A stretch of DNA of 59,603 nt from an uncultured Clostridia bacterium (GCA_945949385.1 CAMFEL010000001.1:1-59603); one strand, 5' to 3'. Counted from the first letter of the stretch, positions 28,241-48,490 are shown. Numbers and translations are program-made. The notes: generated by a model not told the origin, from the sequence alone.

Positions 28241-29266
28241 TCATCCGTTCAGCATTTTATCCCTGAACCAACTGTCACGAAGCTCTTGAGCCGCTGCGGC
28301 AGCCGCACCGTCTCTTATTCTTTCGCAGCGCACCTCCGGAGGTATCACTCCCAGCTTCATACAGTATTCATCGAAAATTGCGCAAGTCACATCTCTCACG
28401 GCATCAAGGTGCTTCGGCTTGTCACCCGACAGCAATATCAGATCGCAGGGAACGCAAAGCACGGAAATGCACAGATATTCCGCCAAGGTTTCGCAGAACA
28501 GTTCCGGGTCGGCTGCAGTCATCGTCATATCGTTAAGACTCATGCTGCTGTTATTTCCGACAAAGAGTCCGGCGTTTGAAAACTGACTGTTTCCGGAAGT
28601 GCCGGCACCGTTATATACAGCTTTAATATCTCCCGTATTTATATAAACGCAGAACACATTCTTATCGGCAGCCAAAGCCTGAGCGCGGCGGGCATGATAA
28701 TCTCTGGTAATGCCCCAGACGGGGCGGCAGAGAAAGGCGCTGTCTCCTTCAAGCAGTCTGGGCGGAGCATTGGTTTCACCGATATCCTGTCCGGCAGCGG
28801 CGCTTATACTCTGATAAGTCGCGGCGGGTACAAGAACCGCAGTTCCGCAGCACCTGTCGATTCTGCGTCTTTCCTTTGCAAAAGCGGCGGCACGCCTTAC
28901 AAAACCGTTGAACTCATCGTCAACGAAAATGTTTCCTCTCAGCGCATACTGCATAACATCAATAGTCCTGAGAGAAAGATCGATCATATAAAAAGAGTAG
29001 CCTCGCTCTCCAATAATATAAATCGCCGTCCAAAGCTCCGGGGAAACGGTCACCGTACGGGAGCGACGCCCGTGACGGGGATCGGCGGACATACTTTGCT
29101 TCAGTATTTTCAAAGCCACAAGAGCGTCCACCGCCTTGCCGACTGTCATAACGCTTAGCCCGCACTTTTCCGCAATTTCGGCGCGAGTAAGATTTGAACC
29201 GGACACAGCGGATCTGAAAACCTCCAGCACCGAGTCCTGTTTCAGGTTGCTGAACTCCTGTTTCAT
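28241..29266 (-). CDS. ROK-like transcriptional regulator (N-terminal wHTH plus sugar-kinase-like fold)
   Basis: The N-terminal LTRAEIAEKCGLSVMTVGKAVDALVALKILKQ is a MarR/ROK-type HTH, and the remainder resembles an ASKHA/ROK domain. I did not see the ROK CxCGxxGC zinc motif. Confidence 0.5.
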   Translation of the reverse strand: MKQEFSNLKQDSVLEVFRSAVSGSNLTRAEIAEKCGLSVMTVGKAVDALVALKILKQSMSADPRHGRRSRTVTVSPELWTAIYIIGERGYSFYMIDLSLRTIDVMQYALRGNIFVDDEFNGFVRRAAAFAKERRRIDRCCGTAVLVPAATYQSISAAAGQDIGETNAPPRLLEGDSAFLCRPVWGITRDYHARRAQALAADKNVFCVYINTGDIKAVYNGAGTSGNSQFSNAGLFVGNNSSMSLNDMTMTAADPELFCETLAEYLCISVLCVPCDLILLSGDKPKHLDAVRDVTCAIFDEYCMKLGVIPPEVRCERIRDGAAAAAAQELRDSWFRDKMLNG

Positions 29267-35365: not shown

Positions 35366-35719
35366 ATGTTCACAAAGGATATGCACATATCCCTGCTTCT
35401 TGATTTTTACGGCGATATTTTGCCGCAGCGCCGATACGAAATGACCAGCCTGTATTATAATGACGATCTGTCACTTGCCGAAATAGCGGAGATATGCGGC
35501 ATCTCCCGCCAAGGTGTCAGGGACGCTGTCAAAAAAAGCGAGAGTGAGCTTCGGGAGCTTGAAGAAAAGCTGGGACTTTGTGCAAGATTCACGGTTCTCA
35601 AATCACAGCTTAAAGAAATTTCCGGGGAAATACGCGCACTGCAAAGCGATGAAATGTCCCCTACACTTCGCGAGCGGCTGAAAGCTGTTGCCGACAGCCT
35701 CGAAACCTTAAACATATAA
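35366..35719 (+). CDS. ylxM: YlxM/UPF0122 putative DNA-binding protein (SRP-operon associated)
   Basis: 117 aa with LLDFYGDILPQRRYEMTSLYYNDDLSLAEIAEICGISRQGVRDAVKK, immediately upstream of ffh. Confidence 0.85.
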   Translation: MFTKDMHISLLLDFYGDILPQRRYEMTSLYYNDDLSLAEIAEICGISRQGVRDAVKKSESELRELEEKLGLCARFTVLKSQLKEISGEIRALQSDEMSPTLRERLKAVADSLETLNI

Positions 35720-35735
35720 ACTAACGGAGGATGCC

Positions 35736-37067
35736 ATGTTTTCAAGCCTAAGCGAAAAACTTAACAGGGCTCTCGGCAAATTCCGCAACAAGGGCAAGCT
35801 TACGGAAGCCGATATAAAAGAAGGAATGCGCGAAATAAAGCTTGCGCTTCTTGAGGCAGATGTCAGCTTTAAGGTAGCGAAAGACTTTGTCAAGGATGTA
35901 TCCGAGCGTGCCGTTGGCACCGAGGTCATGGAAAGCCTTGTGCCCTCACAGCAAATTGTAAAAATTGTTAACGAAGAGCTTATAAAGCTTATGGGTTCGT
36001 CCCGCGCAAAGCTTGAAATAGCTTCAAACCCGCCTACCGTCATTATGATGTGCGGTCTGCAGGGCGCGGGTAAAACCACTCATTGCGCAAAGCTTGCCGC
36101 TATGTATAAAAAGCAGGGCAAAAATCCTCTGCTTGTAGCCTGCGATGTCTACCGCCCCGCAGCAATCAAACAGCTTCAGGTTGTGGGCGAGCAGGTTGGC
36201 GTTCCCGTATTTGAAATGGGCGCCGGAGATCCCGTAAAAATAGCAGCCGAGGGCGTTAAATACGCAAAGAAGAGCGGCTATGATATGGTGTTTATCGACA
36301 CCGCCGGCAGACTTCATGTTGACGAAACTCTGATGAAGGAGCTTTCCGAAATAAAGAAAGCCATAGAGCCTACGGAGATCCTGCTTGTTATCGACGCCAT
36401 GCTGGGTCAGGACGCCGTAAATGTTGCAAGTTCCTTCAACGAGCTGCTTGATATTACAGGCGTTATCCTTACAAAGCTTGACGGCGACACCCGCGGCGGC
36501 GCGGCACTGTCGGTAAGACACACTACCGGAAAGCCTATAAAATTCGTGGGTACGGGTGAAAAACTTGACGCCATCGAGCCCTTTTATCCCGACAGAATGG
36601 CGTCCAGAATACTGGGCATGGGCGATGTGCTCACTCTTATCGAAAAAGCCGAGCAGGCAGTTGACGAAAAGAAAGCGGCAGAGCTTGAGCGAAAGCTTCG
36701 CGAAAACAGCTTTACCCTGTCTGATTATCTGGATCAGCTCCGTCAGCTTAAAAATATGGGCAGCCTTGACGCTCTTGTAGGTATGATCCCCGGTATGAAC
36801 AAAGGCGCGCTCAGGGACGCCAAGATCGACGAAGGAGCAATGGCGCGCACCGAAGCCATAATCCTTTCAATGACCGAAAAAGAGCGTAACCGTCCCGATA
36901 TTATCAACGGCTCCCGCCGCAAGCGCATTGCCGCCGGCAGCGGAACAAGCGTTGAAGAGGTCAACAGGCTTATGAAGCAGTACGACCAGATGAACAAAAT
37001 GTTCAAGCAGCTCAATTCCATGGGCAAAAAAGGTAAAAAGAGGATGAAAATGCCGTTTAACTTTTAA
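35736..37067 (+). CDS. ffh: Signal recognition particle protein Ffh
   Basis: 443 aa with NG-domain GLQGAGKTT, DTAGRL and TKLDGD motifs, plus a Met-rich M domain. Confidence 0.95.
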   Translation: MFSSLSEKLNRALGKFRNKGKLTEADIKEGMREIKLALLEADVSFKVAKDFVKDVSERAVGTEVMESLVPSQQIVKIVNEELIKLMGSSRAKLEIASNPPTVIMMCGLQGAGKTTHCAKLAAMYKKQGKNPLLVACDVYRPAAIKQLQVVGEQVGVPVFEMGAGDPVKIAAEGVKYAKKSGYDMVFIDTAGRLHVDETLMKELSEIKKAIEPTEILLVIDAMLGQDAVNVASSFNELLDITGVILTKLDGDTRGGAALSVRHTTGKPIKFVGTGEKLDAIEPFYPDRMASRILGMGDVLTLIEKAEQAVDEKKAAELERKLRENSFTLSDYLDQLRQLKNMGSLDALVGMIPGMNKGALRDAKIDEGAMARTEAIILSMTEKERNRPDIINGSRRKRIAAGSGTSVEEVNRLMKQYDQMNKMFKQLNSMGKKGKKRMKMPFNF

Positions 37068-37112
37068 CGGGTTTTTATATAAAAATTATATTTATTTTCG
37101 GAGGAAAAACAA

Positions 37113-37355
37113 ATGGTTAAGATCAGACTCAGAAGAATGGGCGCAAAGAAGTCTCCCTTCTACCGTGTTGTCGTTGCAGACAGCCGTTATCCCCGCGACG
37201 GTCGTTTTATTGAGGAGGTCGGTACTTACGATCCTATGACCGAACCCGCAACCGTAAAGCTTAACACGGAAAAAATCAAGGATTGGATCTCCAAGGGCGC
37301 ACAGCCTACCGACACCGTAAAGGCTCTTATCGACAACTACTCCGACGCTGAGTAA
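37113..37355 (+). CDS. rpsP: 30S ribosomal protein S16
   Basis: [25 protein letters not shown] is a canonical bS16 N-terminus. Confidence 0.95.
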
Positions 37356-37375
37356 TTCGGCGGGGAGGATGTTCG

Positions 37376-37612
37376 ATGATTGATCTTGTACGTCTTCTTG
37401 AAGACATTGCGAAATCTATCGTTGACAATCCTGACCAGGTCAAGGTGACGCAGGAGATCAACGATGATACCGTCACCCTTACCCTCAAGGTCGCAGAAAG
37501 CGATATGGGTATGGTTATCGGCAAGCACGGCAATATTGCAAAAGCTATCCGTACCGTTACCAAGGCCGCCGCAAAACTGGGCGACATGAAGGTCACGGTT
37601 GAGATCAGATAA
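37376..37612 (+). CDS. ylqC: KH-domain RNA-binding protein (YlqC/UPF0109)
   Basis: 78 aa with the GMVIGKHGNIAKAIRTV KH motif, in the conserved position after rpsP. Confidence 0.85.
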   Translation: MIDLVRLLEDIAKSIVDNPDQVKVTQEINDDTVTLTLKVAESDMGMVIGKHGNIAKAIRTVTKAAAKLGDMKVTVEIR

Positions 37613-37622
37613 ACTGCAAAAG

Positions 37623-37649
37623 AAAAAACCGCCCTCGGGCGGTTTTTTT
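37623..37649. terminator. Bidirectional terminator separating ylqC from the convergent 8-gene operon
   Basis: AAAAAA-CCGCCC-tc-GGGCGG-TTTTTTT. Confidence 0.7.
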
Positions 37650-37693: not shown

Positions 37694-38656
37694 TCAAACA
37701 TCAATCTCATCGAGATTTACCGCACGGCCGCCCTCGTTTCTGCTGCGAAGCCCGGCAATAATGATCTTCATCATTTCAACGGAATCGCTGAAGGCAACAG
37801 GCTCCTCACCTGTGCGCAGCCATTTGACAAACAGATCAAGCTGCTTTTTGAAAGCGTAATAGGAATCCTCGCAGTCAAGGTACTTTGAGCCGCGGCTTCC
37901 TATAATAAGCATACCAGCACCCGCCATGCCAATTCCCTGAGGAATATCCACACGGCAGCCGTTTTTATGCACAAGATGAACCTGTGCCTGCTCGTATGTG
38001 CCCGTGTTCTGAACAGACACAAAGCCGCTGCCAAGCAAGGGATACATCTGTTCTACGGCGTGAATACCGTAAGTCTCCCACTTTTTCGGCATGGGCGCAC
38101 AAATATACATAAGCTTTCCCATTTCATAAGTATGACCGTAGTAGGGCTCAAACTCCTTTGCATATCTCATGCAGGAGGAAGTAATAAACTGCTTTCCCTC
38201 ACGCCTCCAGTTAACAAAGGTGCGAAGATCCTCCTCGGTGTTTACAAGAGGCTTGTCAATAAACATGGGGAGCCCGGCGTCAAGAAAAGGCTTGCAGCGA
38301 TCAACATGCTCGTTCCCGTCATCGGTAGCGCAGATAACCGCGTCCACCTGTCCCAGCATTTCAATGGGATCATCCACAACATTGGGTATGCAGGACGCCT
38401 TTGCCATATGCTCAGCCATTTTTCTGTCGGCATATCCGGTACAGCAAATATGGGTAATATGCGCCCCTGGGATGCCGAAAGTCTCGGGCGGCTGCTTGTA
38501 CAAATAATCGGGAATTACAGGAAAAGGACATTCATCCATATATTCCTTGTTATAGCCGTTGAACATGGCGCTCCAGGAGTAGGGGTGTCCGTTACCCTCG
38601 GTCATACCGAGAATTCCGATTTTAAGCTCCTTATCGCCAAGGGGAAGCTTTGCCAT
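37694..38656 (-). CDS. Gfo/Idh/MocA-family oxidoreductase (atypical N-terminal nucleotide-binding loop)
   Basis: 320 aa. LKIGILGMTEGNGHPYSW replaces the usual GxGxxG, and the family EKP motif appears as FIDKPL. It is the last gene of the operon. Confidence 0.7.
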   Translation of the reverse strand: MAKLPLGDKELKIGILGMTEGNGHPYSWSAMFNGYNKEYMDECPFPVIPDYLYKQPPETFGIPGAHITHICCTGYADRKMAEHMAKASCIPNVVDDPIEMLGQVDAVICATDDGNEHVDRCKPFLDAGLPMFIDKPLVNTEEDLRTFVNWRREGKQFITSSCMRYAKEFEPYYGHTYEMGKLMYICAPMPKKWETYGIHAVEQMYPLLGSGFVSVQNTGTYEQAQVHLVHKNGCRVDIPQGIGMAGAGMLIIGSRGSKYLDCEDSYYAFKKQLDLFVKWLRTGEEPVAFSDSVEMMKIIIAGLRSRNEGGRAVNLDEIDV

Positions 38657-38712
38657 AATGATTACCTTCTTTCGATATTAGGTATTTATGTTATAAAAAT
38701 AAATTCAGCAAG

Positions 38713-39648
38713 TTACTTTTTCGGACGGGACAGAACCTTCATAATTTCGGGGATGTTCACATCTCTGAAGGTCTCTCTGATAGCCGCGGCGGTGTCCTCA
38801 CTGACAGAAGGAGCGGCGAAATACGCAGCGTTTGCGGCTACCTGTTCCTTAGTGTCGGCGCCCAGCACAAGGCTTGCAATACCGGGAATGTCACGCATAA
38901 AGGATATAGCCATTTCCGCAATGCTCATACCCTCTTTCTCGGCAAACTCACGCAGCTTTATTATCTTCGGCTTTGCGTGCTCGCAAAGAATAGGATCCGT
39001 GATCTTTTCGGGGTCAAGGAAAAACAGGCCCTGTAAAAATACGCTTCGAACAAAAACAGTATAGCCGCGGCGGCTGAGCTCGTCAACGGTACCGTCGTTA
39101 ATAAGGCGCTGATCGAAAATGCTCATAGGTATCTGCGTTGCGGTATACTCCGGATAGTTAAACATAAGCCTGATGTCCTCTGCAGTATACACGGAAACGC
39201 CCACCATATCCGTATAGCCTCTTTTTATAAGTCCCTGCATGGTCTTAGCGCACAGCTCGGGCTTAAAACGGAGGTTTGCGGCGTTGTGGAGCATAATATT
39301 GTCCACCTTATTAACACCGAGTCTTTGCAGAGAGGCCTCGGCACTCTCCACAATAAACTTTTCCACCTCGGCGTCGCTACCCTCCTCTATCATGGGCACC
39401 TTAGTGGTTATAAAAGGCTTGTTCTCAACACCTGCAAGAAAATGTCCCAGCACATCCTCGGAATTTCCGTAAGCGCGTGCGGTATCAAGGCTGTTTACAC
39501 CGCTTTCAAGAGCCGCACCCAGCATTTCCATACTCTGCTCTTCTTTAGGCTGACCGTTTTCATTGGCAATACCGTAGTTCATACCGAGCTGAACGGTACC
39601 CAAAGTCATTTTAGAAATTTTCTTGCCGCCGATCTCAGTATAAAGCAT
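38713..39648 (-). CDS. Aldo/keto reductase
   Basis: 311 aa with MTLGTVQLGMNYG and LDTARAYGNSEDVLG (catalytic Tyr context). The start overlaps the upstream stop by 1 nt (TAATG). Confidence 0.85.
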   Translation of the reverse strand: MLYTEIGGKKISKMTLGTVQLGMNYGIANENGQPKEEQSMEMLGAALESGVNSLDTARAYGNSEDVLGHFLAGVENKPFITTKVPMIEEGSDAEVEKFIVESAEASLQRLGVNKVDNIMLHNAANLRFKPELCAKTMQGLIKRGYTDMVGVSVYTAEDIRLMFNYPEYTATQIPMSIFDQRLINDGTVDELSRRGYTVFVRSVFLQGLFFLDPEKITDPILCEHAKPKIIKLREFAEKEGMSIAEMAISFMRDIPGIASLVLGADTKEQVAANAAYFAAPSVSEDTAAAIRETFRDVNIPEIMKVLSRPKK

Positions 39649-40433
39649 TATTTTATCTTCCTTCCGCTGATGTTTCTCACAATATTTCTGTAATACTGCC
39701 ACAGACCGACAACATCGGCGCCTGCGGAGATAAAGGTGTAGCCCATATCCACAAGCTCGTCAAAGTTAGCGGGGCCGCCGGTGGTACCTGCCCACTTTCC
39801 GTGACGGCGGGCACATTCCGCAATTTTTTTGCGCGCCTCGCAAACCTCAGGAAGCTCACACTCGTAAGGATGCCCTATTCCCTGACTAAAGTCGGCGGGA
39901 CCGAAGAATATCATATCAATTCCGGGAAGAGCGCAGATCTCCTCAAGCTCCGCCATGGGCTCCGGATCCTCTATCTGAACTATTACGAAACGCTCTTCGT
40001 TTGCGGTCTTAACATATTCCTGCTCGTTAACAAGGCAGTACTTGCCGTCGGCGTTGCCGCCGTCGATGGGTCTGCGTCCCACGGGATGGAATTTTGTATA
40101 GTAAACGATTTTCTTAGCCTCTTCAAGACTCATCAAATGGGGCACCATAATGCCGGCGGAATCGCCCTCAAGCGGACGGACAATATCGCTGTAACAGCCC
40201 TTTGACACTCTGGTAAGCACATCAACATCGTAGCATTTTGCGCTTCTGACGGCGTTTTCGATAAATGACCAATCGCTCGGAATGTGCTCCATATCCACCC
40301 AAACGCAGTCAAAGCCGCACATTGCCGCAATCTCAACATCGCGCTGATCCGCCAGATTGATCTTCACGCAGGTTGCCACATTTCCGCTTCTCATCTGTCT
40401 CAGCACCCTGCTCTGTCTCATATGAAATTCCAT
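39648..40433 (-). CDS. HpcH/HpaI-family class II (metal-dependent) 2-keto-3-deoxy-acid aldolase
   Basis: 261 aa with CGFDCVWVDMEH and VQIEDPE metal/substrate blocks, plus FFGPADFSQ. The ATG at 40433 has GAAAGGA 9 nt upstream. Confidence 0.8.
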   Translation of the reverse strand: MEFHMRQSRVLRQMRSGNVATCVKINLADQRDVEIAAMCGFDCVWVDMEHIPSDWSFIENAVRSAKCYDVDVLTRVSKGCYSDIVRPLEGDSAGIMVPHLMSLEEAKKIVYYTKFHPVGRRPIDGGNADGKYCLVNEQEYVKTANEERFVIVQIEDPEPMAELEEICALPGIDMIFFGPADFSQGIGHPYECELPEVCEARKKIAECARRHGKWAGTTGGPANFDELVDMGYTFISAGADVVGLWQYYRNIVRNISGRKIK

Positions 40434-40467
40434 AGTAATATTCCTTTCCAAGCTCTGCCGGTCTTAT

Positions 40468-41268
40468 TTAACGGGCGGTGTAGCCGCCGTCCACATTGAT
40501 TCCGGCACCCGTAATATAAGAGGAAGCGTCGGAAGCAAGAAAAACAAGCACGCCCTGAATGTCATTTTCATCAGCCATTCTGCCCAGATACGTCATTTTG
40601 GCATATCTCTCCAGAAACTCGGGATTCTGATGGTTAAACAGACCGCCCAGATTGAGGCAGTTTACGCGTACACCGGCTTTGCCGTATCTTCCCGCCATGA
40701 AGCGGGTAAGATTAAGCATGCCGCCCTTGTGGAAGAAATAATCGGGAGCGTCAATTGCGTCCATCTCGGGATGTCCCTCGTAAAGATAAGGATTGGAGCC
40801 GCAAATACCCATATATGAGCCGATGTTTATAATGCTGCCTCCGCCGCATTTTTCCATGTGGTCACCGAAAGCACGGGTTATGGCGAAAAGTCCGGTGGCG
40901 TTGACAGCCATAGACTTAGCAAAGTCCTCAAGAGGTGCCTCATAATCGTGCATGGGACGCAGAACGGAGTTGTTCACAAGTATATCCACGCGGCCGTTTT
41001 GCTTTATCATTCTGTCAAGAAGTGCCTTTATACTCTCCTCGTCCTCCTGATCGTAGCAGTCGGCATACACCTTATCGTAGCCCATGGAATTAAGCTCGTC
41101 GCAAAACTCCTTGCATTTTTCAAGTCCGCGGGAAGCACAGCAAACAGTTGCGCCCGCGTCGGCAAGAGCAATGACCATCTGCTTGCCGTAATAGCCGGAG
41201 CCGCCCGTCACAAGGGCGGTCTTTCCGTCAAGTCTGAATCTGTCGATAATATTGGCTTTGTTATACAT
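40468..41268 (-). CDS. Short-chain dehydrogenase/reductase (SDR)
   Basis: 266 aa with TGGSGYYGKQ (TGxxxGxG), NNSV and YFFHK (YxxxK). Confidence 0.85.
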   Translation of the reverse strand: MYNKANIIDRFRLDGKTALVTGGSGYYGKQMVIALADAGATVCCASRGLEKCKEFCDELNSMGYDKVYADCYDQEDEESIKALLDRMIKQNGRVDILVNNSVLRPMHDYEAPLEDFAKSMAVNATGLFAITRAFGDHMEKCGGGSIINIGSYMGICGSNPYLYEGHPEMDAIDAPDYFFHKGGMLNLTRFMAGRYGKAGVRVNCLNLGGLFNHQNPEFLERYAKMTYLGRMADENDIQGVLVFLASDASSYITGAGINVDGGYTAR

Positions 41269-41281
41269 ATAAGCCGTCTCC

Positions 41282-42550
41282 TCAGAAAAGTTTCTTTACA
41301 GCGTCAACAACAGCGCCGCCGGCTTCGCCGGTAAATACGGAAGTGCCTACCTCGTAACCGCCGTCATTGACTGCGTCGGGAGTAAACATATATCCGGGCA
41401 GAGAGCCGTTGGTAACCTCAAATACAAAGGTCTTCTTAGCGGGAGAAGCCGCCTTCAGCTCAAGACCGAATTCCACAAAAATCTCACCCTGAGTGGTACA
41501 GATATTTGTATCGTCGAGAGTAACGAGACACACTTCGCAGGGAAGCTCTTCATCTGTTATAGCGCCGCCCTCGGCTGCGATTTCGGCATAGTAAAATTCG
41601 TTCTCCTTGCCGAACATGGCAAGCTCGCAGTTACGCTTTGCTATGTAGTCGTCGTCGGGCATTTCTCTGAACGCCTTGCGTGCTTCTTCCATTTCGCGGC
41701 GTGCAACTTCAACCGGAGGATAGGAACGGGTGGGGAGGTCGATTTCCGCACTCTTGAAGCCTATTTCAATATCGTTTTTGAATTCCATTTTTTCAATGGT
41801 GTGGAAGATCTCAACACCGAGAGTGGAGCCAACGCGGGCAGCCTCCTCAAAGTTCTGACCCACTCTGTGGTAACGGGAGGACTGGTTGCCGCTGGTACCC
41901 TGAGCAAACATAAACTTTGCTTCGGGATATGCAAAAGAAAGGTAGCGGCGCACATATCCGGGATAATCGGCAGTAACAAGCAGGTTTTCGGCATGCAGAT
42001 ATGTGGGATGTAGAGCGTAATTGAACAGTATGCCGCGTACAGTGTCATTCATATCCTTGATACAAATAACATTCACGCTGTCGTCCTGAACACCGTTTTT
42101 GACTCGTCTGTTACCGCCCACGCCCTGCTCTTTTCCGCAGTGACCGACGCCGGTGGCAAATTTAGCCTCAAAAGTGTTGCTTCTTGCTTCAACTATTGCA
42201 GCCTCAACCTTGGGAAGAAGCTGAGCTATGTAAGACGGATCGTCATGAAGTCCTTCTGCCAGTTCGGAGGCAAGAGGCGTTGAAGACCAGGGGCCCGAAT
42301 GGGTATGAGAGGTGGTAAAGGTAATGTTGCCGCCCAGCTTTTCTCTGAGCTGTCTGCAATACTTTTTACCGAAGTACAGAAGATCGAGAGTCACCATTGT
42401 AATGCTGTCGCGTCCGTTGTCAAGATACAGCGCCCCGCAGTAAAGAGGGTCGTGTATTCCTTCGTTCGGACGGGGGCAATGGGGATAGCCCGCCATCTGC
42501 ACACCCTTTTCGGGTGAAATGTCTGCAAGTGCAATTCCTGCTTTAAGCAT
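41282..42550 (-). CDS. Neutral/alkaline-ceramidase-N-terminal-domain-like hydrolase, cytoplasmic
   Basis: 422 aa with no signal peptide. The pattern GIALADISP...MAGYP...IHDPLYCGALYL...TSHTHSGP...ALHPT matches my recollection of the neutral ceramidase-like fold. Confidence 0.55.
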   Translation of the reverse strand: MLKAGIALADISPEKGVQMAGYPHCPRPNEGIHDPLYCGALYLDNGRDSITMVTLDLLYFGKKYCRQLREKLGGNITFTTSHTHSGPWSSTPLASELAEGLHDDPSYIAQLLPKVEAAIVEARSNTFEAKFATGVGHCGKEQGVGGNRRVKNGVQDDSVNVICIKDMNDTVRGILFNYALHPTYLHAENLLVTADYPGYVRRYLSFAYPEAKFMFAQGTSGNQSSRYHRVGQNFEEAARVGSTLGVEIFHTIEKMEFKNDIEIGFKSAEIDLPTRSYPPVEVARREMEEARKAFREMPDDDYIAKRNCELAMFGKENEFYYAEIAAEGGAITDEELPCEVCLVTLDDTNICTTQGEIFVEFGLELKAASPAKKTFVFEVTNGSLPGYMFTPDAVNDGGYEVGTSVFTGEAGGAVVDAVKKLF

Positions 42551-42587
42551 AGTAATCTACCTTCTTTTCGTATAAAAACTTATAGCT

Positions 42588-43679
42588 TTACGCTTTGAAT
42601 ACATTGATAACGTCAAAATCGTCGTCAAGCACGACAATATCGGCGCGTTTTCCGGCTTCGAGGCTGCCGACCGTGCTGTCCACACGCAGAAGCCTTGCCG
42701 GATTAAGGCTTGTAACAGCGGCGATTTCCGGCAGGGAGAAGCCCAGCGCCCGGAAATTGGCAGCTACTCTGTTCATCGTAAGCTTTGAGCCGTTAAGCTC
42801 TCCGTCGAGGAAGTTAATTTCCTCGCCGTCGCCGTCGCCGCCGCAGGCGTCGGTAATTCCGATAATACTGCCGGCTCCGGCACATCTTTTTACAAGAGCC
42901 ACATATTCGGGGCGAACGTGTACGCCTTCCCTGTCGCAGATTATCTCATAAGTGAGACCCTCGCAGGAAAGAGCGGCAATATTGAAGTCCGTCTCCAGAG
43001 TACCTGCCCAACGGGTAGGAGAGATCGATGCGCCCGTTGCGTCAAACAGATGCGTAACATTTGAGGCACCGCAGGCAACGGCACGCCTTACCTGTTCGGG
43101 GGACGCCTTGCTGTGGCCGATAGAGCCCGCAATTCCGCGTTTTTTCATCTCCCGCATAAGCTGCTCTGTTCCCTCCACCTCGGGAGCAAAGGTCATATGG
43201 CGAAGTATACCGCAGTCAAGCATAGGCATATAAACGGCGGGATCGGCAAAAATATCGGCCTTTGCGCTTCTTGCTCCCAGTTCGGGATTAAGAAACGGTC
43301 CCTCAAGGTGAACACCGCATATTGTAGGACAGGTATTCATAGCCTGCCTTACGGCTTCAATGCCGTTCATAATGCCCTCTGTACCCAGATCCCGGTAAAG
43401 AGTAGCGCATACGGTTGTAGTGCCGTGAATGAAATGATACTCTGCGCAGGCGGCAGGATCCTCATGAAACCATGTAGACCCGCCGGCATGGCAGTGAATG
43501 TCAACAAAACCGGGCATTACCGTGCCGGTTTCGCTTATCACATTGGAAAGGAAGGGAGCGTCGGCTGCGCTTCCGGCGTAAACTATCTCACCGTCGCGCA
43601 CACATACGGCGCCCTTTTCAGCCACGCGATCCCGCAGGACCACGCGGCCTAAAAGCGTATATTCATCCATAACGCGCAT
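42588..43679 (-). CDS. NagA-family amidohydrolase (N-acetylhexosamine-6-phosphate deacetylase-like)
   Basis: 363 aa with PGFVDIHCHAGGS, VHLEGPFLNPE, NVTHLFDATG and GITDA. The start overlaps the upstream stop by 1 nt (TGATG). Confidence 0.75.
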   Translation of the reverse strand: MRVMDEYTLLGRVVLRDRVAEKGAVCVRDGEIVYAGSAADAPFLSNVISETGTVMPGFVDIHCHAGGSTWFHEDPAACAEYHFIHGTTTVCATLYRDLGTEGIMNGIEAVRQAMNTCPTICGVHLEGPFLNPELGARSAKADIFADPAVYMPMLDCGILRHMTFAPEVEGTEQLMREMKKRGIAGSIGHSKASPEQVRRAVACGASNVTHLFDATGASISPTRWAGTLETDFNIAALSCEGLTYEIICDREGVHVRPEYVALVKRCAGAGSIIGITDACGGDGDGEEINFLDGELNGSKLTMNRVAANFRALGFSLPEIAAVTSLNPARLLRVDSTVGSLEAGKRADIVVLDDDFDVINVFKA

Positions 43680-44611
43680 CAGTAGCCTACTGTCTCGCAG
43701 CACTCAAAGGGCTCTGCAATAGCCTCGGATACATAAACATCCGTGTCCATAAGCTGAAGTATGGAGGACGGTACAAGAGGAGTAACCTCGCCGTAGCAAA
43801 CAAGGCGGGAGATCATACGCTGCCATGCGGAATATGTACCGAATGTGGTAATAGCGTGCATCTCCAGACGGTTTCTGGAATTCTTAACATCGACGGGGCC
43901 GATGGTAGCAGCCTTGGGAGGCACATTGGCAATGTCTCCGGAGCAGCCGAAGCAGCCGTGGAGAGAGTTCTGCATAATAGTCATGGGATTAAGCGTTACC
44001 ACACGGGCTTCCATCTCCAGATATTCCTCAATGGGAGGACAGCCGAACTCGGGAGTGCAGGGATCGATGAACGCAATGTGACCTGCCCAGCCGGGGCCGG
44101 AGTAGCAAACATCAGCACCGCCGTCGCCGCAGTCAGCGATCATCTTGGAGTAATCCCTGATATTTTCGGTTGTGGGATAATGCACCTGAGACAGGGGCAT
44201 ACGGAGATCCTCGCGGATCTTTCCCCAGAAGTACTTCACATTACTGTGTGCAAAACCTGCGGCATAGTCAAGAGGAGCAATATTTCCGTCCTGATCCGCC
44301 CACTCGTCCATACAGAAAATATGTACATTGCGGCAGTTGATGTTAAGGCGGTTAATAGCCTCTGCCACAGACATATACTCAACGGGACAGGGGTTGGGGC
44401 ATATCATGACGACCTTTTCGTTCATCATATCGCTTTTTGCGATTCTGCCGATCATATCGGCAATCCATATGCCGTCGGGGCTGGGAACCACATGAATACG
44501 GAAATTGGGATTAGGATGCTTTTCCATATCCTCGCGCTTGATGTTTCTGCATCTTTCAAGCACCTCACGGTTCTTGTAGGGCACGAAGGGTGCCGGATCA
44601 AAAGTAAACAT
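43679..44611 (-). CDS. NagB-family protein (glucosamine-6-phosphate deaminase/isomerase-like) with an altered catalytic block
   Basis: 310 aa with FCMDEWAD (vs NagB FNMDEY) and SGPGWAGHIAFIDP (vs GGVGNDGHIAFNEP), plus an N-terminal extension of about 45 aa. Confidence 0.7.
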   Translation of the reverse strand: MFTFDPAPFVPYKNREVLERCRNIKREDMEKHPNPNFRIHVVPSPDGIWIADMIGRIAKSDMMNEKVVMICPNPCPVEYMSVAEAINRLNINCRNVHIFCMDEWADQDGNIAPLDYAAGFAHSNVKYFWGKIREDLRMPLSQVHYPTTENIRDYSKMIADCGDGGADVCYSGPGWAGHIAFIDPCTPEFGCPPIEEYLEMEARVVTLNPMTIMQNSLHGCFGCSGDIANVPPKAATIGPVDVKNSRNRLEMHAITTFGTYSAWQRMISRLVCYGEVTPLVPSSILQLMDTDVYVSEAIAEPFECCETVGY

Positions 44612-44641
44612 TTTACCTCTCCTTGTATGTAAAATTATTTT

Positions 44642-45940
44642 TTAATTATTTTCGGGATAAAGAATTTTCTTAACGCCCGCCGGAGGGATTTTGTACTCCG
44701 AAGCAAGCATTGCCGCTCCCAGAGATGCGGTTTCCGCAGTGTCCAGCACCTCTACGGGGATATTTGCAACCCTTGCAAGAATACGGCACCATATATCGCT
44801 TTTCGCGCCGCCGCCGAACACCTTCAGCCTGTCGGCACCGCCGAGACTCTCAACAGCCTTTGCAATATCCCTTGACACGCCCTCGTACAGAGCGTACACA
44901 ATGTCCGCCGAAGTAGTGGAAAGAGTCAGACCTCTGATTGCTCCGCCGGAGGACAGATCCGATTCAAACACGACGCCTCCCGCACCCGGAGCGGAATTCT
45001 CGGCAAGTGCGTCCATTTCCTTATAGCTCATGGAGCCGTACAGTGTTCTTGAAAGCCAGCGGAGCGCAGCTCCCGTCGTCATAAGCGCAAGCTCGGATAT
45101 ATACTCGCTGTTGCTGAAACGGAACAGCGAAGCGCCGCCGTCGTTTTCGCAAAGCTTTGATATAGCGGTAGCGGTACCGAAAGAAACGGTGCATACATCT
45201 TTTTCGATGCCCGCGCCAAGCGCCGCAAGCTTCTGATCCTGACCGCCCAAATAGACCGTGCAGCCCTCGTTAATACCGCACACCTTGCAGACCTCGGGGA
45301 GAAGCATTCCGACTTTTTCTCCCATACAGCCTACCTCCGGCAGCTTGCTTTCTTCAATACCGGCAAAATCGAGCAGCTCTTTGCTCCAGCAGCGGTTGTG
45401 AATATCGTAAGCCATTGAACCGCCGGCTACCGTGTAATCGCACATGGCGCGCCCGCAAAGCTTGAAATTAAGAAAATCAAGAGGAAACAGAATTTTGTCT
45501 GCCGCAAAGTATATGTCGGGCTTATGCTCTTTGAGCCACATAAGCTTCGGCAATGAATAATCACTCAGACAGAATTTACCCGTTACACCGTAAATATGCT
45601 TTTCTCCGAAACGCTCCAAAATCCTTGCGCATTGCCTGTCTGCACGCAAGTCAAGCCAGGAAACAGCATTGTCAAGAGTGCGTCCGTTTCTGTCAACGGG
45701 AACAAAAGAAATGCTTTGGGTGCTTACGGAAATACCGCGCACATCGCAAACACCCGACTTTTCCACAACATAGGAAAGACCCTCACAGACAAGCCGCCAC
45801 CATTCGTTGGCGTCCTGCTCCACAAATCCGTCCTTGAAAATAAGCTCATATTCTCTGTTGTACTCGCACAAAACCTCGCCAAAAGCGCCGTACATCACGG
45901 TCTTACAGCCGGTAGTGCCCAAATCTATACCTATATACAT
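44642..45940 (-). CDS. FGGY-family carbohydrate kinase
   Basis: 432 aa with MYIGIDLGTTGCK and VFGGGAKSDIWCRILA signatures. It is the first gene of the operon, with RBS AAGGTGA. Confidence 0.85.
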   Translation of the reverse strand: MYIGIDLGTTGCKTVMYGAFGEVLCEYNREYELIFKDGFVEQDANEWWRLVCEGLSYVVEKSGVCDVRGISVSTQSISFVPVDRNGRTLDNAVSWLDLRADRQCARILERFGEKHIYGVTGKFCLSDYSLPKLMWLKEHKPDIYFAADKILFPLDFLNFKLCGRAMCDYTVAGGSMAYDIHNRCWSKELLDFAGIEESKLPEVGCMGEKVGMLLPEVCKVCGINEGCTVYLGGQDQKLAALGAGIEKDVCTVSFGTATAISKLCENDGGASLFRFSNSEYISELALMTTGAALRWLSRTLYGSMSYKEMDALAENSAPGAGGVVFESDLSSGGAIRGLTLSTTSADIVYALYEGVSRDIAKAVESLGGADRLKVFGGGAKSDIWCRILARVANIPVEVLDTAETASLGAAMLASEYKIPPAGVKKILYPENN

Positions 45941-45971
45941 ATTAAATCACCTTGTATAATTTCTCCAGTAT

Positions 45972-46000
45972 ATTATAAATAAAGAAGCGCTGTTTGTCAA
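45972..46000 (-). promoter_or_regulatory. Consensus sigma-A promoter of the 8-gene operon
   Basis: Minus strand TTGACA (46000-45995)-17 nt-TATAAT (45977-45972), about 30 nt upstream of the kinase ATG. Confidence 0.55.
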
Positions 46001-46024
46001 TAAATTATCACGGCAAACAGCGCT
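45986..46024. terminator. Hairpin terminator downstream of tmcAL, overlapping the operon promoter -35
   Basis: 11-bp perfect stem AGCGCTGTTTG/CAAACAGCGCT with a 17-nt loop. It is T-rich on both flanks. Confidence 0.5.
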
Positions 46025-46063
46025 GTTTTTATTGATTTTTCGTATGTTTACAGCCTTTTCGCG

Positions 46064-47152
46064 TTATTTCTCCACAAAGGGGCGCGCCCTTGCGAAAAAT
46101 GAGCTGTCTTCAATACCGGCACATAAGGTATACAGCCTGTCCGCGGCATCGCTTTCCCTGTACTGCCGCATTGCCGCCTCATCAAGCCTTTGCCTGTCCG
46201 CAGGGTTTGTAAGCACGGGAACACTGCTGCTGCCGCGCAGAAAGGAAAGATACTTTCTGCCCGTACGGTTTGCCGCAAGAATTCTCAAAAAGCCCGGAGG
46301 CTCCCTAAGCGCCCCCGCCGTCACGGCACAGGCTTCAAAAAGCGCACATCGGCGCAGCCTCGCGTTTGTATACTGCTTTGTGGCGGCGGCAGAAAGCCAC
46401 AAAGCGGGATCGTTTACGCTTCTTGCCGCCTTAATAAGCCTTTCTCCCACGCCCCCGCCGCTTTCCGCAAAGTGGCCGCAGGCGGGTACGGTGCGGAAAT
46501 GATAAAACTCAATCTCCGTAAGGCGTGCAAAGCAGACAGGCGCGGCTCCGTACTCATTTCTGATGTCTTCCGACACTCCGTCCTTCGAGAAACGTGCCAG
46601 TATACAGTTTCTTATCTCGCTTGCGCTTTGCGTCTTTATTCGCTTTACGGGATGACACTCAATTGAGGCGCGTCTTACATATTCCGTCGCAAGTATATCG
46701 TTAGGCGAGGAATAAATACTTTCCGGAAAGCTCTCCCCCGACGCTCTCAGAGTCTCTTCCCTGTCAGCCGCGGCTCTGCCGGACTTGTGCTCTCTCCTGT
46801 CCTCAAGAATTTTCGCCGCCCGCTTCAGGGCATCAATATCCGCACATTCACTGCCGAAAAACAGCTCCTGCGCACCTGAAAGCTCCGCAAGACGCACTCC
46901 TGCCTCGGCAAAAAACTCAGCAGAGGCGGAGCAATAAGGAAAAGGAAGCTCGATTACAAGATCAACTCCGCCTTCAAGAGCCGCCCTCGCCCTCGTATAT
47001 TTGTCAAATATTGCGCTCTCACCGCGCTGAACATAGTTTCCGCTCATTACGGCCACAAGCACATCGGCATTCTCTTTTGCCCGTTCAAAAATATAGCGGT
47101 GCCCCTGATGCATGGGGTTCAGCTCACATATTACAGCAGATACTTTAACCAT
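46064..47152 (-). CDS. tmcAL: tRNA(Met) cytidine acetate ligase (TmcAL / YlbM, UPF0348 nucleotidyltransferase)
   Basis: 362 aa with the N-terminal ICELNPMHQGHRYIF HxGH-type motif and the VMSGNYVQRGE block. Confidence 0.75.
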   Translation of the reverse strand: MVKVSAVICELNPMHQGHRYIFERAKENADVLVAVMSGNYVQRGESAIFDKYTRARAALEGGVDLVIELPFPYCSASAEFFAEAGVRLAELSGAQELFFGSECADIDALKRAAKILEDRREHKSGRAAADREETLRASGESFPESIYSSPNDILATEYVRRASIECHPVKRIKTQSASEIRNCILARFSKDGVSEDIRNEYGAAPVCFARLTEIEFYHFRTVPACGHFAESGGGVGERLIKAARSVNDPALWLSAAATKQYTNARLRRCALFEACAVTAGALREPPGFLRILAANRTGRKYLSFLRGSSSVPVLTNPADRQRLDEAAMRQYRESDAADRLYTLCAGIEDSSFFARARPFVEK

Positions 47153-47281: not shown

Positions 47282-48490
47282 ATGAAAGTACTCGTAGTAA
47301 ACGCCGGAAGCTCCTCTCTTAAATATCAGCTTTTCGACACCGTAAGCGGAAGCGTTCTCGCAAAGGGAATTTGCGAGCGCATCGGTATTGACGGACGCAT
47401 TGAGCACAAGCTGCCATCCGGAGAGAAGCTGAAAAAGGACATCCCCATGCCCGACCACGCAGTCGCAACAGAGATCGTGCTGTCCTACCTTACCGATCCC
47501 GAAACCGGTTGTATCAAGGATGTCAGCGAGATCGAAGCAATCGGACACCGCATTGTCCACGGCGGCACTTATTTCACGGAGTCCGCTCTCGTTACCCCCG
47601 AGGTGATCGAAAAACTGCGCCTCTGCGTTGACCTTGCTCCTCTGCACACCCCCGCGCATATTATGGGTATCGAGGGCTGCACCGCCGCTATGCCCGGCGT
47701 TCCTCAGGTAATCGTAATCGACACCGCATTCCATCAGACCATGCCTCCCCAGGCATATACCTACGCCCTGCCTTACGAGATGTGTCAGAAGTACAGCATC
47801 CGCCGTTTCGGAGCTCACGGTACAAGCCACCGCTATGTTTCCGCCGAAATGTGCAAGATTCTCGGCAGAGTCGAGGGTACTAAAATCGTTACCTGCCATA
47901 TAGGAAACGGCTCCTCCATTTCCGCCGTAAAGGACGGCAAATGTATTGACACCTCCATGGGTATGACACCCCTTGCAGGCGTTATGATGGGTACCCGCTG
48001 CGGCGATATTGACCCCGCCGTGGTAACTTATGTTATGAAAAAGACCGGCAAGACTCCCGACGAAATGAGCGACTTCATGAATAAGGAATGCGGTTTCCTC
48101 GGTCTGTCCGGTATTTCCTCCGACAGCCGCGACATCGAAGCTGCAATTCTCAAGGGCGACGAGAGGGCGTACCTCACCGCTTCCACCCTTGCTTATCAGG
48201 TCAAAAAGTATATCGGTTCATATGCGGCAGCAATGAACGGACTTGACGCAGTTGTGTTTACCGCAGGCATGGGAGAAAACAACCCCGAGCTCAGAGAGAG
48301 AGCCTGCACGGATATGGAATATCTGGGCATAAAGATCGACCGCGAGGTAAACGCAAAGGCTCATCATCAGTCCAATACCGTTGAGCTTTCCACTCCCGAT
48401 TCCAAGGTAAAGGTATACCTTATCCCCACCAACGAGGAGCTTGTGATCGCCAGCGATACCGAGCGTATCGTTTCCGAAATGAAAAAGTAA
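47282..48490 (+). CDS. ackA: Acetate kinase
   Basis: 402 aa with MKVLVVNAGSSSLKYQLF, HRIVHGG and FTAGMGENN. Confidence 0.95.
   Translation: MKVLVVNAGSSSLKYQLFDTVSGSVLAKGICERIGIDGRIEHKLPSGEKLKKDIPMPDHAVATEIVLSYLTDPETGCIKDVSEIEAIGHRIVHGGTYFTESALVTPEVIEKLRLCVDLAPLHTPAHIMGIEGCTAAMPGVPQVIVIDTAFHQTMPPQAYTYALPYEMCQKYSIRRFGAHGTSHRYVSAEMCKILGRVEGTKIVTCHIGNGSSISAVKDGKCIDTSMGMTPLAGVMMGTRCGDIDPAVVTYVMKKTGKTPDEMSDFMNKECGFLGLSGISSDSRDIEAAILKGDERAYLTASTLAYQVKKYIGSYAAAMNGLDAVVFTAGMGENNPELRERACTDMEYLGIKIDREVNAKAHHQSNTVELSTPDSKVKVYLIPTNEELVIASDTERIVSEMKK

Follow-up and report, generated by a model that had tools for sequence, protein, structure and literature searches.

A conserved two-module operon from a chicken-gut Oscillospiraceae bacterium encodes divergent enzymes of a putative amino-sugar and sugar-acid pathway

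The operon and its control region

We analyzed a 59,603-nucleotide stretch of DNA (the window) from an uncultured Clostridia bacterium (GCA_945949385.1, CAMFEL010000001.1:1-59603), which contains an eight-gene operon at positions 37694 to 46000. The operon is real and conserved, and it comes from a chicken-gut Oscillospiraceae bacterium. The closest genome locus, with 99% identity, belongs to a Candidatus Avispirillum metagenome-assembled genome in the Oscillospiraceae. In the order of transcription, the first four genes are referred to as module A and the last four as module B, and each module has one signature gene:

45940..44642, minus strand: FGGY kinase, module A, 432 amino acids
44611..43679, minus strand: NagB-like protein, module A (signature gene), 310 amino acids
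43679..42588, minus strand: NagA-like protein, module A, 363 amino acids, counted from the ATG that overlaps the upstream stop
42550..41282, minus strand: ceramidase-like zinc amidase, module A, 422 amino acids
41268..40468, minus strand: short-chain dehydrogenase/reductase (SDR), module B, 266 amino acids
40433..39648, minus strand: HpcH/HpaI class II pyruvate aldolase (HpcH), module B, 261 amino acids
39648..38713, minus strand: aldo/keto reductase (AKR), module B, 311 amino acids
38656..37694, minus strand: Gfo/Idh/MocA-like oxidoreductase (GFO-like), module B (signature gene), 320 amino acids

The original prediction described these eight same-strand genes as one operon between a consensus promoter and a bidirectional terminator, and the coordinates, junctions, promoter and terminator were all confirmed. 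From the kinase gene to the GFO-like gene, the intergenic distances are 30, -1 (TGATG), 37, 13, 34, -1 (TAATG) and 56 nt. Each gene had also been credited with its own ribosome-binding site. Purine-rich runs that resemble such sites were found 5' of seven of the eight starts, while the NagA-like gene, whose ATG shares 1 nt with the upstream stop, lacks one. The exact eight-gene order was found in full in other Oscillospirales species (L007-L010, L014, L015, L087 and L091), with two inserted genes in L019, and cut by contig ends in L006, L016, L020 and L104; among loci with the same order, the NagB-like proteins are 70-99% identical. The promoter, the terminator, the tight junctions, the runs resembling ribosome-binding sites and the recurrence of the gene order in other species together provide good support for a single transcription unit. 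That the unit encodes a cytoplasmic catabolic pathway is likewise well supported. The absence of signal peptides, as claimed earlier, was borne out by a Kyte-Doolittle hydropathy scan, which found no transmembrane or signal-like segment in the eight products and no 19-residue stretch with a mean above 1.4.

The features that control the operon are as follows:

46000..45972, minus strand: sigma-70-type promoter, TTGACA-17-TATAAT, score 12/12, the top site in the scanned region
46015..46028, no strand assigned: perfect palindrome of 14 bp, AAACAGCGCTGTTT, a little upstream of the -35 hexamer, candidate operator
45982..45995, no strand assigned: imperfect copy of the palindrome with 2 mismatches, in the spacer of the promoter, shortly after the -35 hexamer
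37622..37649, no strand assigned: bidirectional intrinsic terminator, 12-pair stem, 5 of the pairs GC, with a T-run on either strand

When the intergenic regions between the kinase gene and the upstream tmcAL-like gene were aligned for the window and seven other species, both promoter hexamers were invariant and their flanks were variable. The perfect palindrome occurs only once in the window and is kept in L006, L009 and L010, and it was not found in more distant relatives. The two palindromes look like candidate operators, and their positions on either side of the -35 hexamer would suit a repressor encoded elsewhere. A CcpA cre site was considered for the palindrome and rejected, because the terminal TG/CA of the cre consensus is missing and the motif is absent from the distant relatives. 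The only sugar-type regulator candidate seen in the window is a protein encoded at 28241..29266 (minus strand), 17 kb from the operon, whose N-terminus reads by eye as ROK-family regulator/kinase-like. At the other end of the operon, the terminator hairpin is shared with the convergent ffh-rpsP-KH genes.

Properties of the eight proteins

The family assignments of the original prediction were all correct by Pfam, NCBIfam and Foldseek searches with two structure models, and every protein lies far below the level of an equivalog. The FGGY kinase matched FGGY_N (2.8e-58) and FGGY_C (8e-17) in Pfam. Its top NCBIfam model was XylB (291 bits against a cut-off of 380), it also matched gntK_FGGY (9e-43), and its nearest PDB sequences were E. 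coli xylulokinase (1e-40) and gluconate kinase (4e-32). It is the sole kinase of the operon, in which Pfam and NCBIfam searches found no ROK/NagK-type kinase.

The NagB-like protein had no Pfam match. The best NCBIfam NagB model scored 34.1 bits against a cut-off of 326, and TIGR00502 scored 29.7 against 236.9, which places the protein below the curated cut-offs (TIGR00502 and PRK00443) for a NagB orthologue. A sequence search of the PDB returned nothing at E <= 10. At the level of structure, the AlphaFold2 (AF2) model (pLDDT 87) was closest in Foldseek to glucosamine-6-phosphate (GlcN6P) deaminases (1.9e-16, TM-scores of 0.67-0.83), with 6-phosphogluconolactonases ranked behind them. Alignment with E. 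coli NagB by hhalign (91% probability) paired D102 with the catalytic Asp72, H178 with His143 and D183 with Glu148, while R203 and K233 corresponded to Arg172 and Lys208 of the 6-phosphate site. Two departures from E. coli NagB are the change of Asp141 to Ala and the replacement of the GLPTGGTP loop by CPNPCP. From the alignment and the model, the protein is predicted to be a NagB-fold deaminase/isomerase-like enzyme that retains catalytic and anion-binding residues. The conserved Arg/Lys site suggests that this enzyme takes a substrate that is phosphorylated or at least anionic, so that phosphorylation by the kinase probably comes first.

Tandem copies of the NagB-like gene occur in L009 (8834-10713), L010 (9050-10930) and L017 (10001-11885), and L035, L038, L040, L045 and L047 have the gene twice. 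The duplicates could form a heteromer or carry out two successive deaminations.

Module A contains two amidases. The NagA-like protein matched Amidohydro_1 at 2.7e-22 and the nagA model TIGR00221 at 145 bits, which is under the curated cut-off of 225.65 for a NagA orthologue. When it was aligned with the NagA proteins of T. maritima and B. subtilis, the motifs HxH, HLEGP, GHS, THLF and TDA were visible, and the loop after THLF was divergent; identity to solved NagA proteins is 25-30%. Its sequence is that expected of a binuclear-metal amidohydrolase with the metal and catalytic motifs retained.

The ceramidase-like protein matched Pfam Ceramidase_alk (PF04734) with 32.1 bits, exactly at the cut-off. 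Its AF2 model (pLDDT 91) matched the neutral ceramidases of P. aeruginosa and human in Foldseek at 1e-26 to 5e-25, with TM-scores of 0.71-0.77 by query length and of about 0.5 by target length, and nothing else in that search was significant. Residues H82-T83-H84, H181, E339/E356, Y387/Y399 and R148/R149 are invariant in 32 homologues, and the conserved His, Glu, Tyr and Arg line up with the ceramidase zinc site. The protein thus has the catalytic-domain fold of a neutral/alkaline ceramidase together with its zinc-site residues, and it shares the fold and the HxH, His, Glu, Tyr and Arg positions with P. aeruginosa CDase and human ASAH2 at an identity of 14-16%. However, with 422 residues against 630-690 in ceramidases, the protein falls short by about 200 residues, and the C-terminal Ig-like domain is missing. 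It has no hydrophobic N-terminus or secretion signal, whereas known ceramidases are secreted proteins or are anchored in the membrane. An apparent 745-residue ceramidase-NagB fusion in L018 was rejected as a stop-free upstream extension, since the gene caller gives a separate 427-residue protein (P0200).

In five loci (L033, L035, L038, L040 and L041), the ceramidase-fold gene is replaced by a gene for a creatininase-family hydrolase (PF02633, 2.8e-54), which adjoins the NagB-like gene and has a weak match to the ring-opening hydrolase IolN. This looks like a non-orthologous replacement, and it hints that the step may be the hydrolysis of a cyclic amide or ring. Considering the creatininase replacement and the sugar-metabolism context, the substrate of the ceramidase-fold enzyme is probably a small N-acyl or lactam sugar and not ceramide.

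In module B, the SDR matched adh_short_C2 at 1.4e-36 and carries the TGxxGxxG and YxxxK motifs. Its best NCBIfam subfamily was gluconate 5-dehydrogenase (179 bits against a cut-off of 279), with KduD at 127 bits. The aldolase is a member of the HpcH/HpaI family (PF03328, 6.4e-23, 81.6 bits against a cut-off of 25), which acts as a pyruvate aldolase on 4-hydroxy-2-keto acids. With 80-114 bits to the HpaI, GarL and RhmA models, for which the cut-offs are 369-441, it is an equivalog of none of them. Its best PDB match was 3qz6 (9e-26), and the TRV, QIED and GPAD segments, read by eye, are consistent with the Arg and metal-ligand motifs of the family. The AKR matched Aldo_ket_red at 1.6e-36, the motifs of the D-Y-K-H catalytic tetrad are readable in its sequence, and its nearest PDB sequences were MtmW (6e-14) and L-galactose dehydrogenase (5e-10).

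The GFO-like protein had a Pfam GFO_IDH_MocA match of 1.8e-5 (25.8 bits against a cut-off of 24) over residues 77-150 only, and no significant PDB sequence match was found, even with the family profile. The DKP and YGIH motifs and the unusual equivalent of the N-terminal glycine-rich loop, GMTEGNGHPYSWSA, are all invariant. The protein appears to be a highly divergent Gfo/Idh/MocA-like oxidoreductase.

Two modules and their partners in other genomes

The NagB-like family comprises 4337 homologues when clustered at 90%, and its members occur in at least 588 GTDB species, with a phyletic range that covers Clostridia, Christensenellaceae, Kiritimatiellia, Lentisphaerae, Verrucomicrobia, Spirochaetes and Actinomycetota. 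When clustered at 50%, the family shrinks almost entirely to a single representative, and only 586 of 1.84 billion representatives match at E <= 0.001; by these sequence measures, it forms a compact clade of its own. For the GFO-like family, 4325 homologues were found. Versions of the system are present in hundreds of anaerobic species, in which annotation pipelines label its members "hypothetical," "neutral ceramidase" or "predicted dehydrogenase."

The neighborhoods of module A were analyzed by calling open reading frames (ORFs) in 85 loci around NagB-like genes and searching them with the proteins of the window, and those of module B by searches from the GFO-like gene, including 46 metagenome loci. 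The FGGY kinase gene accompanies the NagB-like gene in 52 of the 85 loci. In about 15 of the 85, the four-gene unit of FGGY kinase, ceramidase-like, NagB-like and NagA-like genes occurs without module B, usually amid housekeeping genes (for example, L021, L024-L027, L029, L031 and L034). Three-gene forms that lack the NagA-like gene were found in L004, L012 and L013, and in more distant clades the triad of NagA-like, NagB-like and ceramidase-like genes is still accompanied by the kinase gene. Module B is found by itself in L086, L089, L090, L094 and many loci from metagenomes, and in the 46 metagenome loci the GFO-like gene lies beside the HpcH gene in 30 and beside the SDR gene in 35. On the other hand, the two modules are interleaved in L037 (CER-FGGY-HpcH-SDR-NagB-GFO), L105, L147, L151 and L166, and L001 has both in one transporter-linked cluster. 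Since this interleaving is seen in several phyla, the modules appear to serve one pathway, and the view that the operon consists of two evolutionarily separable modules acting on one substrate is well supported.

The recurrent partners of module A are a KpsF/GutQ-like SIS isomerase, an archaeal-type triose-phosphate isomerase (TPI), a UPF0047/YjbQ protein, FSA/TalC (fructose-6-phosphate aldolase/transaldolase) and ribulose-phosphate epimerase (RPE). In L019 and L020, genes for sugar-phosphate enzymes are inserted between modules A and B. Glycoside hydrolases were sought near module A as a guide to the source glycan, and the large neighbors were mostly unrelated proteins (TyrRS, MutS/MutL, TrkA, helicase-nuclease and GGDEF), except for a melibiase-like gene, an acetyl-xylan esterase and a BNR-domain protein. 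Two adjacent proteins of about 150 residues, which have no Pfam or NCBIfam match, are encoded directly upstream of the FGGY kinase gene in a number of module A clusters (L026, L028, L035, L036, L038, L040 at 1278-1751 and 1742-2191, L058, L105 and L166). L001 has unannotated genes for 149 and 162 residues that match this pair by position.

Module B has other partners. A dihydrodipicolinate synthase (DHDPS)-family aldolase replaces or joins HpcH in L041, L147, L166 and L001, with scores of 97-110 bits to nanA models against a cut-off of 382. A HemL-like class III aminotransferase gene lies beside module B in L086, L089 (8694-9992), L001, L108, L120, L126 and L131, and in L086, L089, L108, L120 and L131 an MFS or AraC gene is also present with the module. 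The three copies of this aminotransferase that were scanned scored 212-375 bits to glutamate-1-semialdehyde aminomutase models, below the cut-off. Open-chain 2-amino sugars are alpha-amino aldehydes, like the namesake substrate of HemL. In three metagenome loci (L152, L161 and L167), module B is accompanied by an OngC-like deaminase, which resembles the pyridoxal phosphate (PLP)-dependent D-serine dehydratase, together with RidA and an amidohydrolase. A YhcH/NanQ-family protein was found in L001 and L090 (85.5 bits to TIGR00022), with weak matches in L129 and L162, and in L088 the GFO-like and HpcH genes adjoin a gene for a heparinase II/III-family lyase. Finally, a BNR_2 propeller match was found in 9-10 of the 46 module B metagenome loci and in L090. 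The assignment of this protein as a true sialidase was dropped as unproven, since only the Asp-box repeats align (best PDB match 4e-5, with no full-length alignment).

The operon itself encodes neither a transporter nor a regulator, as originally predicted, and no phosphotransferase system (PTS) genes were found in the operon or its flanks. Related loci, however, carry both. The transporters are ABC systems of two kinds (including ribose-type systems), MFS or AEC proteins, and the regulators are of the DeoR, LacI, ROK or AraC type; in L001, genes for a substrate-binding protein (SBP) and two permeases come first and the GFO-like gene next. An SSF transporter in L089 was considered as a SiaT-type sialic-acid transporter and was found to be PutP-like (496 bits). 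The transporters and regulators of the relatives make an internally generated substrate, for which envelope or spore turnover had been proposed as the source, less likely; with the operator-like palindromes at the promoter of the window, that proposal was not upheld. Transport is probably encoded elsewhere in this genome, and so, probably, is repression through the promoter palindromes.

Among the genes around the operon, a tmcAL-like gene for a HIGH-motif nucleotidyltransferase (PF05636, 1.3e-71) lies directly upstream on the same strand (46064..47152, minus strand), and ackA (47282..48490, plus strand) diverges from it. The synteny of the tmcAL-like gene and the operon is retained in seven related loci (L006-L010, L017 and L023), and a functional link between the two is unlikely. 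On the other side, a string of ylxM-like, ffh, rpsP and KH-domain (ylqC-like) genes (35366..37600, plus strand) converges on the operon terminator. The usual continuation of the ffh-rpsP-KH string, rimM-trmD-rplS, was not seen before the operon, which thus sits at a break in a housekeeping cluster. Two antisense ORFs, 37967..39064 (plus strand, 365 amino acids, within the GFO-like and AKR genes) and 43856..44632 (plus strand, 258 amino acids, within the NagB-like gene), were rejected as shadows of conserved coding sequence. In ORF clustering, antisense ORFs of NagB-like genes from different species even grouped together.

Possible pathways and their significance

The original prediction did not recognize the combination of enzymes as any characterized pathway, and no match was found here either: all proteins fall below NCBIfam equivalog cut-offs, full-text literature searches found no published description of the cluster, its substrate or its pathway, and the reviews or surveys consulted on amino-sugar pathways in the gut cover canonical routes only. 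The closest known systems share logic with the operon. In nan plus nag (E. coli nanATEK-yhcH and nagBA, or the R. gnavus nan cluster with NanOx), a pyruvate lyase yields an N-acyl hexosamine, which undergoes phosphorylation, deacetylation and deamination/isomerization. A probable Gfo/Idh/MocA-family oxidoreductase is also encoded in the operon, and its relatives have DHDPS-family aldolases, a protein of the YhcH/NanQ family and two permeases with an SBP. However, the window has the class II HpcH in place of the class I NanA and an FGGY kinase in place of ROK, and it adds a ceramidase-fold amidase, an SDR and an AKR. Neither a NanA-type (DHDPS) lyase, NanK (ROK), NanE nor an AGE-type epimerase was found among the eight products by Pfam and NCBIfam.

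The aga system (AgaK/AgaA/AgaS with tagatose-6-phosphate kinase and aldolase) has in common with the operon a kinase, a NagA-family deacetylase, a deaminase/isomerase and further sugar-phosphate steps after deamination. In contrast, AgaS has the SIS fold, the window has an extra amidase and the whole of module B, and no tagatose-6-phosphate kinase or class II FBP-type (fructose-bisphosphate) aldolase was found in the operon or the surveyed loci. The Dga pathway of Salmonella for D-glucosaminate is also among the closest known systems. So is the oxidative chitin (GlcNAc1A) pathway, which consists of OngB-OngC-OngD-KdgK (PMC9537276). The logic of the ong and Dga routes, in which an amino-sugar acid is deacylated and deaminated to a 2-keto-3-deoxy acid and on to pyruvate, is shared, and OngC-like and RidA proteins accompany module B in some metagenome loci. 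However, Pfam and NCBIfam searches of the operon products found no PLP deaminase, RidA, D-aminoacylase-type OngB or PfkB-family KdgK; the candidate deaminase has the NagB fold, and the aldolase is HpcH and not an Eda-type KDPG (2-keto-3-deoxy-6-phosphogluconate) aldolase. Non-phosphorylative cleavage of 2-keto-3-deoxy sugar acids by YfaU/RhmA and GarL likewise uses a class II HpcH aldolase, and the reductases of module B could handle an aldehyde product, although the aldolase of the window has no accompanying dehydratase or lactonase. Judged from the sequences, membership of nan, nag, aga or ong fails at the level of orthology.

Tentatively, and with somewhat less than even confidence, we infer that the operon follows a logic like that of nan plus nag with non-orthologous or very divergent parts. 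Module A would convert an N-acylated amino sugar into a ketose phosphate, ammonia and one or more carboxylic acids, and module B would handle a 2-keto-3-deoxy (ulosonic) sugar acid. In the first step of such a pathway, an imported acidic ulosonic or keto-deoxy amino sugar would be brought into a cleavable form by the NAD(P) enzymes. HpcH would then cleave it to pyruvate and an N-acyl-2-amino-2-deoxy aldose, the released amino sugar would be phosphorylated by the FGGY kinase, and the acyl group or groups would be removed by the two amidases. The NagB-fold enzyme would isomerize and deaminate the product to a ketose phosphate. In many relatives, the KpsF-like SIS isomerase, FSA/transaldolase, RPE and extra TPI may lead from there into central metabolism.

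Several observations favor this logic. The need for both modules at once is explained most simply by sialic-acid logic, and the conservation of two amidases suggests a substrate with two amide bonds or with a single unusual acyl or lactam bond. The NanA-family aldolases, the NanQ-family protein and the sialidase-superfamily propeller of the relatives point softly in the same direction. The amino-sugar logic of pyruvate aldolase, kinase, deacylase and deaminase, with a multiply N-acylated or sialic-acid-like sugar as a possible substrate, was already part of the original prediction, and it gained support from the DHDPS/NanA-family, YhcH/NanQ-family, BNR-propeller and aminotransferase neighbors.

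Other observations weigh against a nan-plus-nag-like pathway. FGGY kinases normally use ketoses, polyols and aldonates and not N-acetylhexosamine pyranoses. None of the three oxidoreductases of module B can be assigned to a definite step, and no specific relation of the GFO-like protein to NanOx/YjhC was detected. A pathway that ended simply in fructose 6-phosphate would have no need of the KpsF-like SIS, RPE and FSA partners, and the sialidase hint is weak, since the BNR protein shares only Asp-boxes with sialidases. In addition, the presence of module B with the OngC-like deaminase and RidA, or with HemL-like aminotransferases, fits an oxidative hexosaminate route at least equally well.

This hexosaminate route is a serious rival, although on balance we consider it unlikely. 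It would be a linear eight-step pathway related to ong and dga, in which the GFO-like enzyme or the AKR, as a 1-dehydrogenase, oxidizes an N-acyl hexosamine to an N-acyl-hexosaminate, the FGGY kinase phosphorylates C6 in the manner of a gluconokinase and the amidases remove the acyl groups. The NagB-fold protein would then act as a deaminase/phospholactonase to give a 2-keto-3-deoxy(-6-phospho)aldonate, which HpcH would cleave to pyruvate and glyceraldehyde(-3-phosphate). The OngC-like, RidA and amidohydrolase genes beside module B in L152, L161 and L167 correspond to the GlcNAc1A enzyme set (PMC9537276). Gluconate kinase is the second-best structural relative of the FGGY kinase (with the gntK_FGGY match of 9e-43), the models nearest to the SDR are those of gluconate 5-dehydrogenase and KduD, L-galactose 1-dehydrogenase is among the PDB relatives of the AKR, and an extra TPI is a frequent partner. 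The NagB-like protein also keeps the Arg and Lys of the anion site, while the loop that matches GLPTGGTP of E. coli is replaced. However, the Asp102/His178 pair fits aldose-ketose isomerization instead, as in the established NagB mechanism, and we know of no precedent for a cofactor-free NagB-fold enzyme that deaminates an alpha-amino acid. HpcH aldolases are known for non-phosphorylated substrates. Many loci have the four-gene module A without any dehydrogenase, the KpsF-like SIS, RPE and FSA partners are left unexplained, and C1-oxidized chitin products are not expected in anoxic guts.

Two further alternatives are less likely, and we consider both improbable. In one of them, an amino-sugar-uronate unit, such as an unsaturated disaccharide of a glycosaminoglycan or a bacterial polysaccharide, would be split between the modules: module B would turn the 4-deoxy-5-keto-uronate into a KDG-type (2-keto-3-deoxygluconate-type) acid, which is cleaved unphosphorylated, and module A would take the N-acetylhexosamine (HexNAc) half. 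In favor of this reading, the 4-deoxy-5-keto-uronate already belongs to the 4-hydroxy-2-keto acids, the SDR is similar to KduD and gluconate 5-dehydrogenase, and a heparinase II/III-family lyase gene lies beside the GFO-like and HpcH genes in L088. However, this adjacency was seen in that locus only, and no GH88/GH105 unsaturated glucuronyl hydrolase or other glycosidase was found in the operon or most relatives. The obligatory second amidase and the divergence of the NagA-like and NagB-like proteins from the canonical enzymes are left unexplained, and the transporters of the relatives are often ribose-type ABC systems for monosaccharides.

The other, ordinary use of GlcNAc, GalNAc or ManNAc by divergent isozymes that are co-transcribed with an unrelated sugar-acid module, agrees with the retained catalytic residues of NagA and NagB and with the existence of each module without the other, but it is at odds with NagB and NagA scores far under the equivalog cut-offs (34 against 326 and 145 against 226 bits), with the tight, separate NagB-like clade, with the ceramidase-fold or creatininase-family hydrolase as an almost constant extra member, with a kinase that is FGGY and not ROK or PTS, with the interleaving of the modules in several phyla and with the SIS, RPE and FSA partners, which are superfluous for a fructose-6-phosphate product.

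In a further reading, which we regard as quite unlikely, the operon and its relatives would encode the first route for the breakdown of bacterial nonulosonic sugars or of other acidic amino sugars with two N-acyl groups. The candidates may then include pseudaminic and legionaminic acids, 2,4-diacetamido-2,4,6-trideoxyhexose cores and 2,3-diacetamido sugars. The two amidases, the tandem NagB-like duplicates and the aminotransferases would match two amide and amine groups. The new activities would be a class II HpcH "ulosonate lyase," a cytoplasmic ceramidase-fold sugar N-deacylase and a deaminase of the Pfam-less NagB-fold family.

What is new in the operon is the use, for amino-sugar/sugar-acid catabolism, of a family without a Pfam model, a ceramidase fold put to a new use and a very divergent GFO clade. 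The enzymes come from familiar superfamilies, and the substrate may prove ordinary; if it is a common one, such as GlcNAc or ManNAc, the operon would amount to a modest example of non-orthologous replacement. Amino sugars and sialic-acid-like sugars decorate host and microbial surfaces, and they are major sources of carbon and nitrogen in guts, sediments and digesters. Identification of the substrate would give functions to the Pfam-less NagB-fold family, to a cytoplasmic bacterial branch of the ceramidase fold and to a divergent Gfo/Idh/MocA clade, and it would add a new nutrient niche to metabolic models of the gut microbiome.

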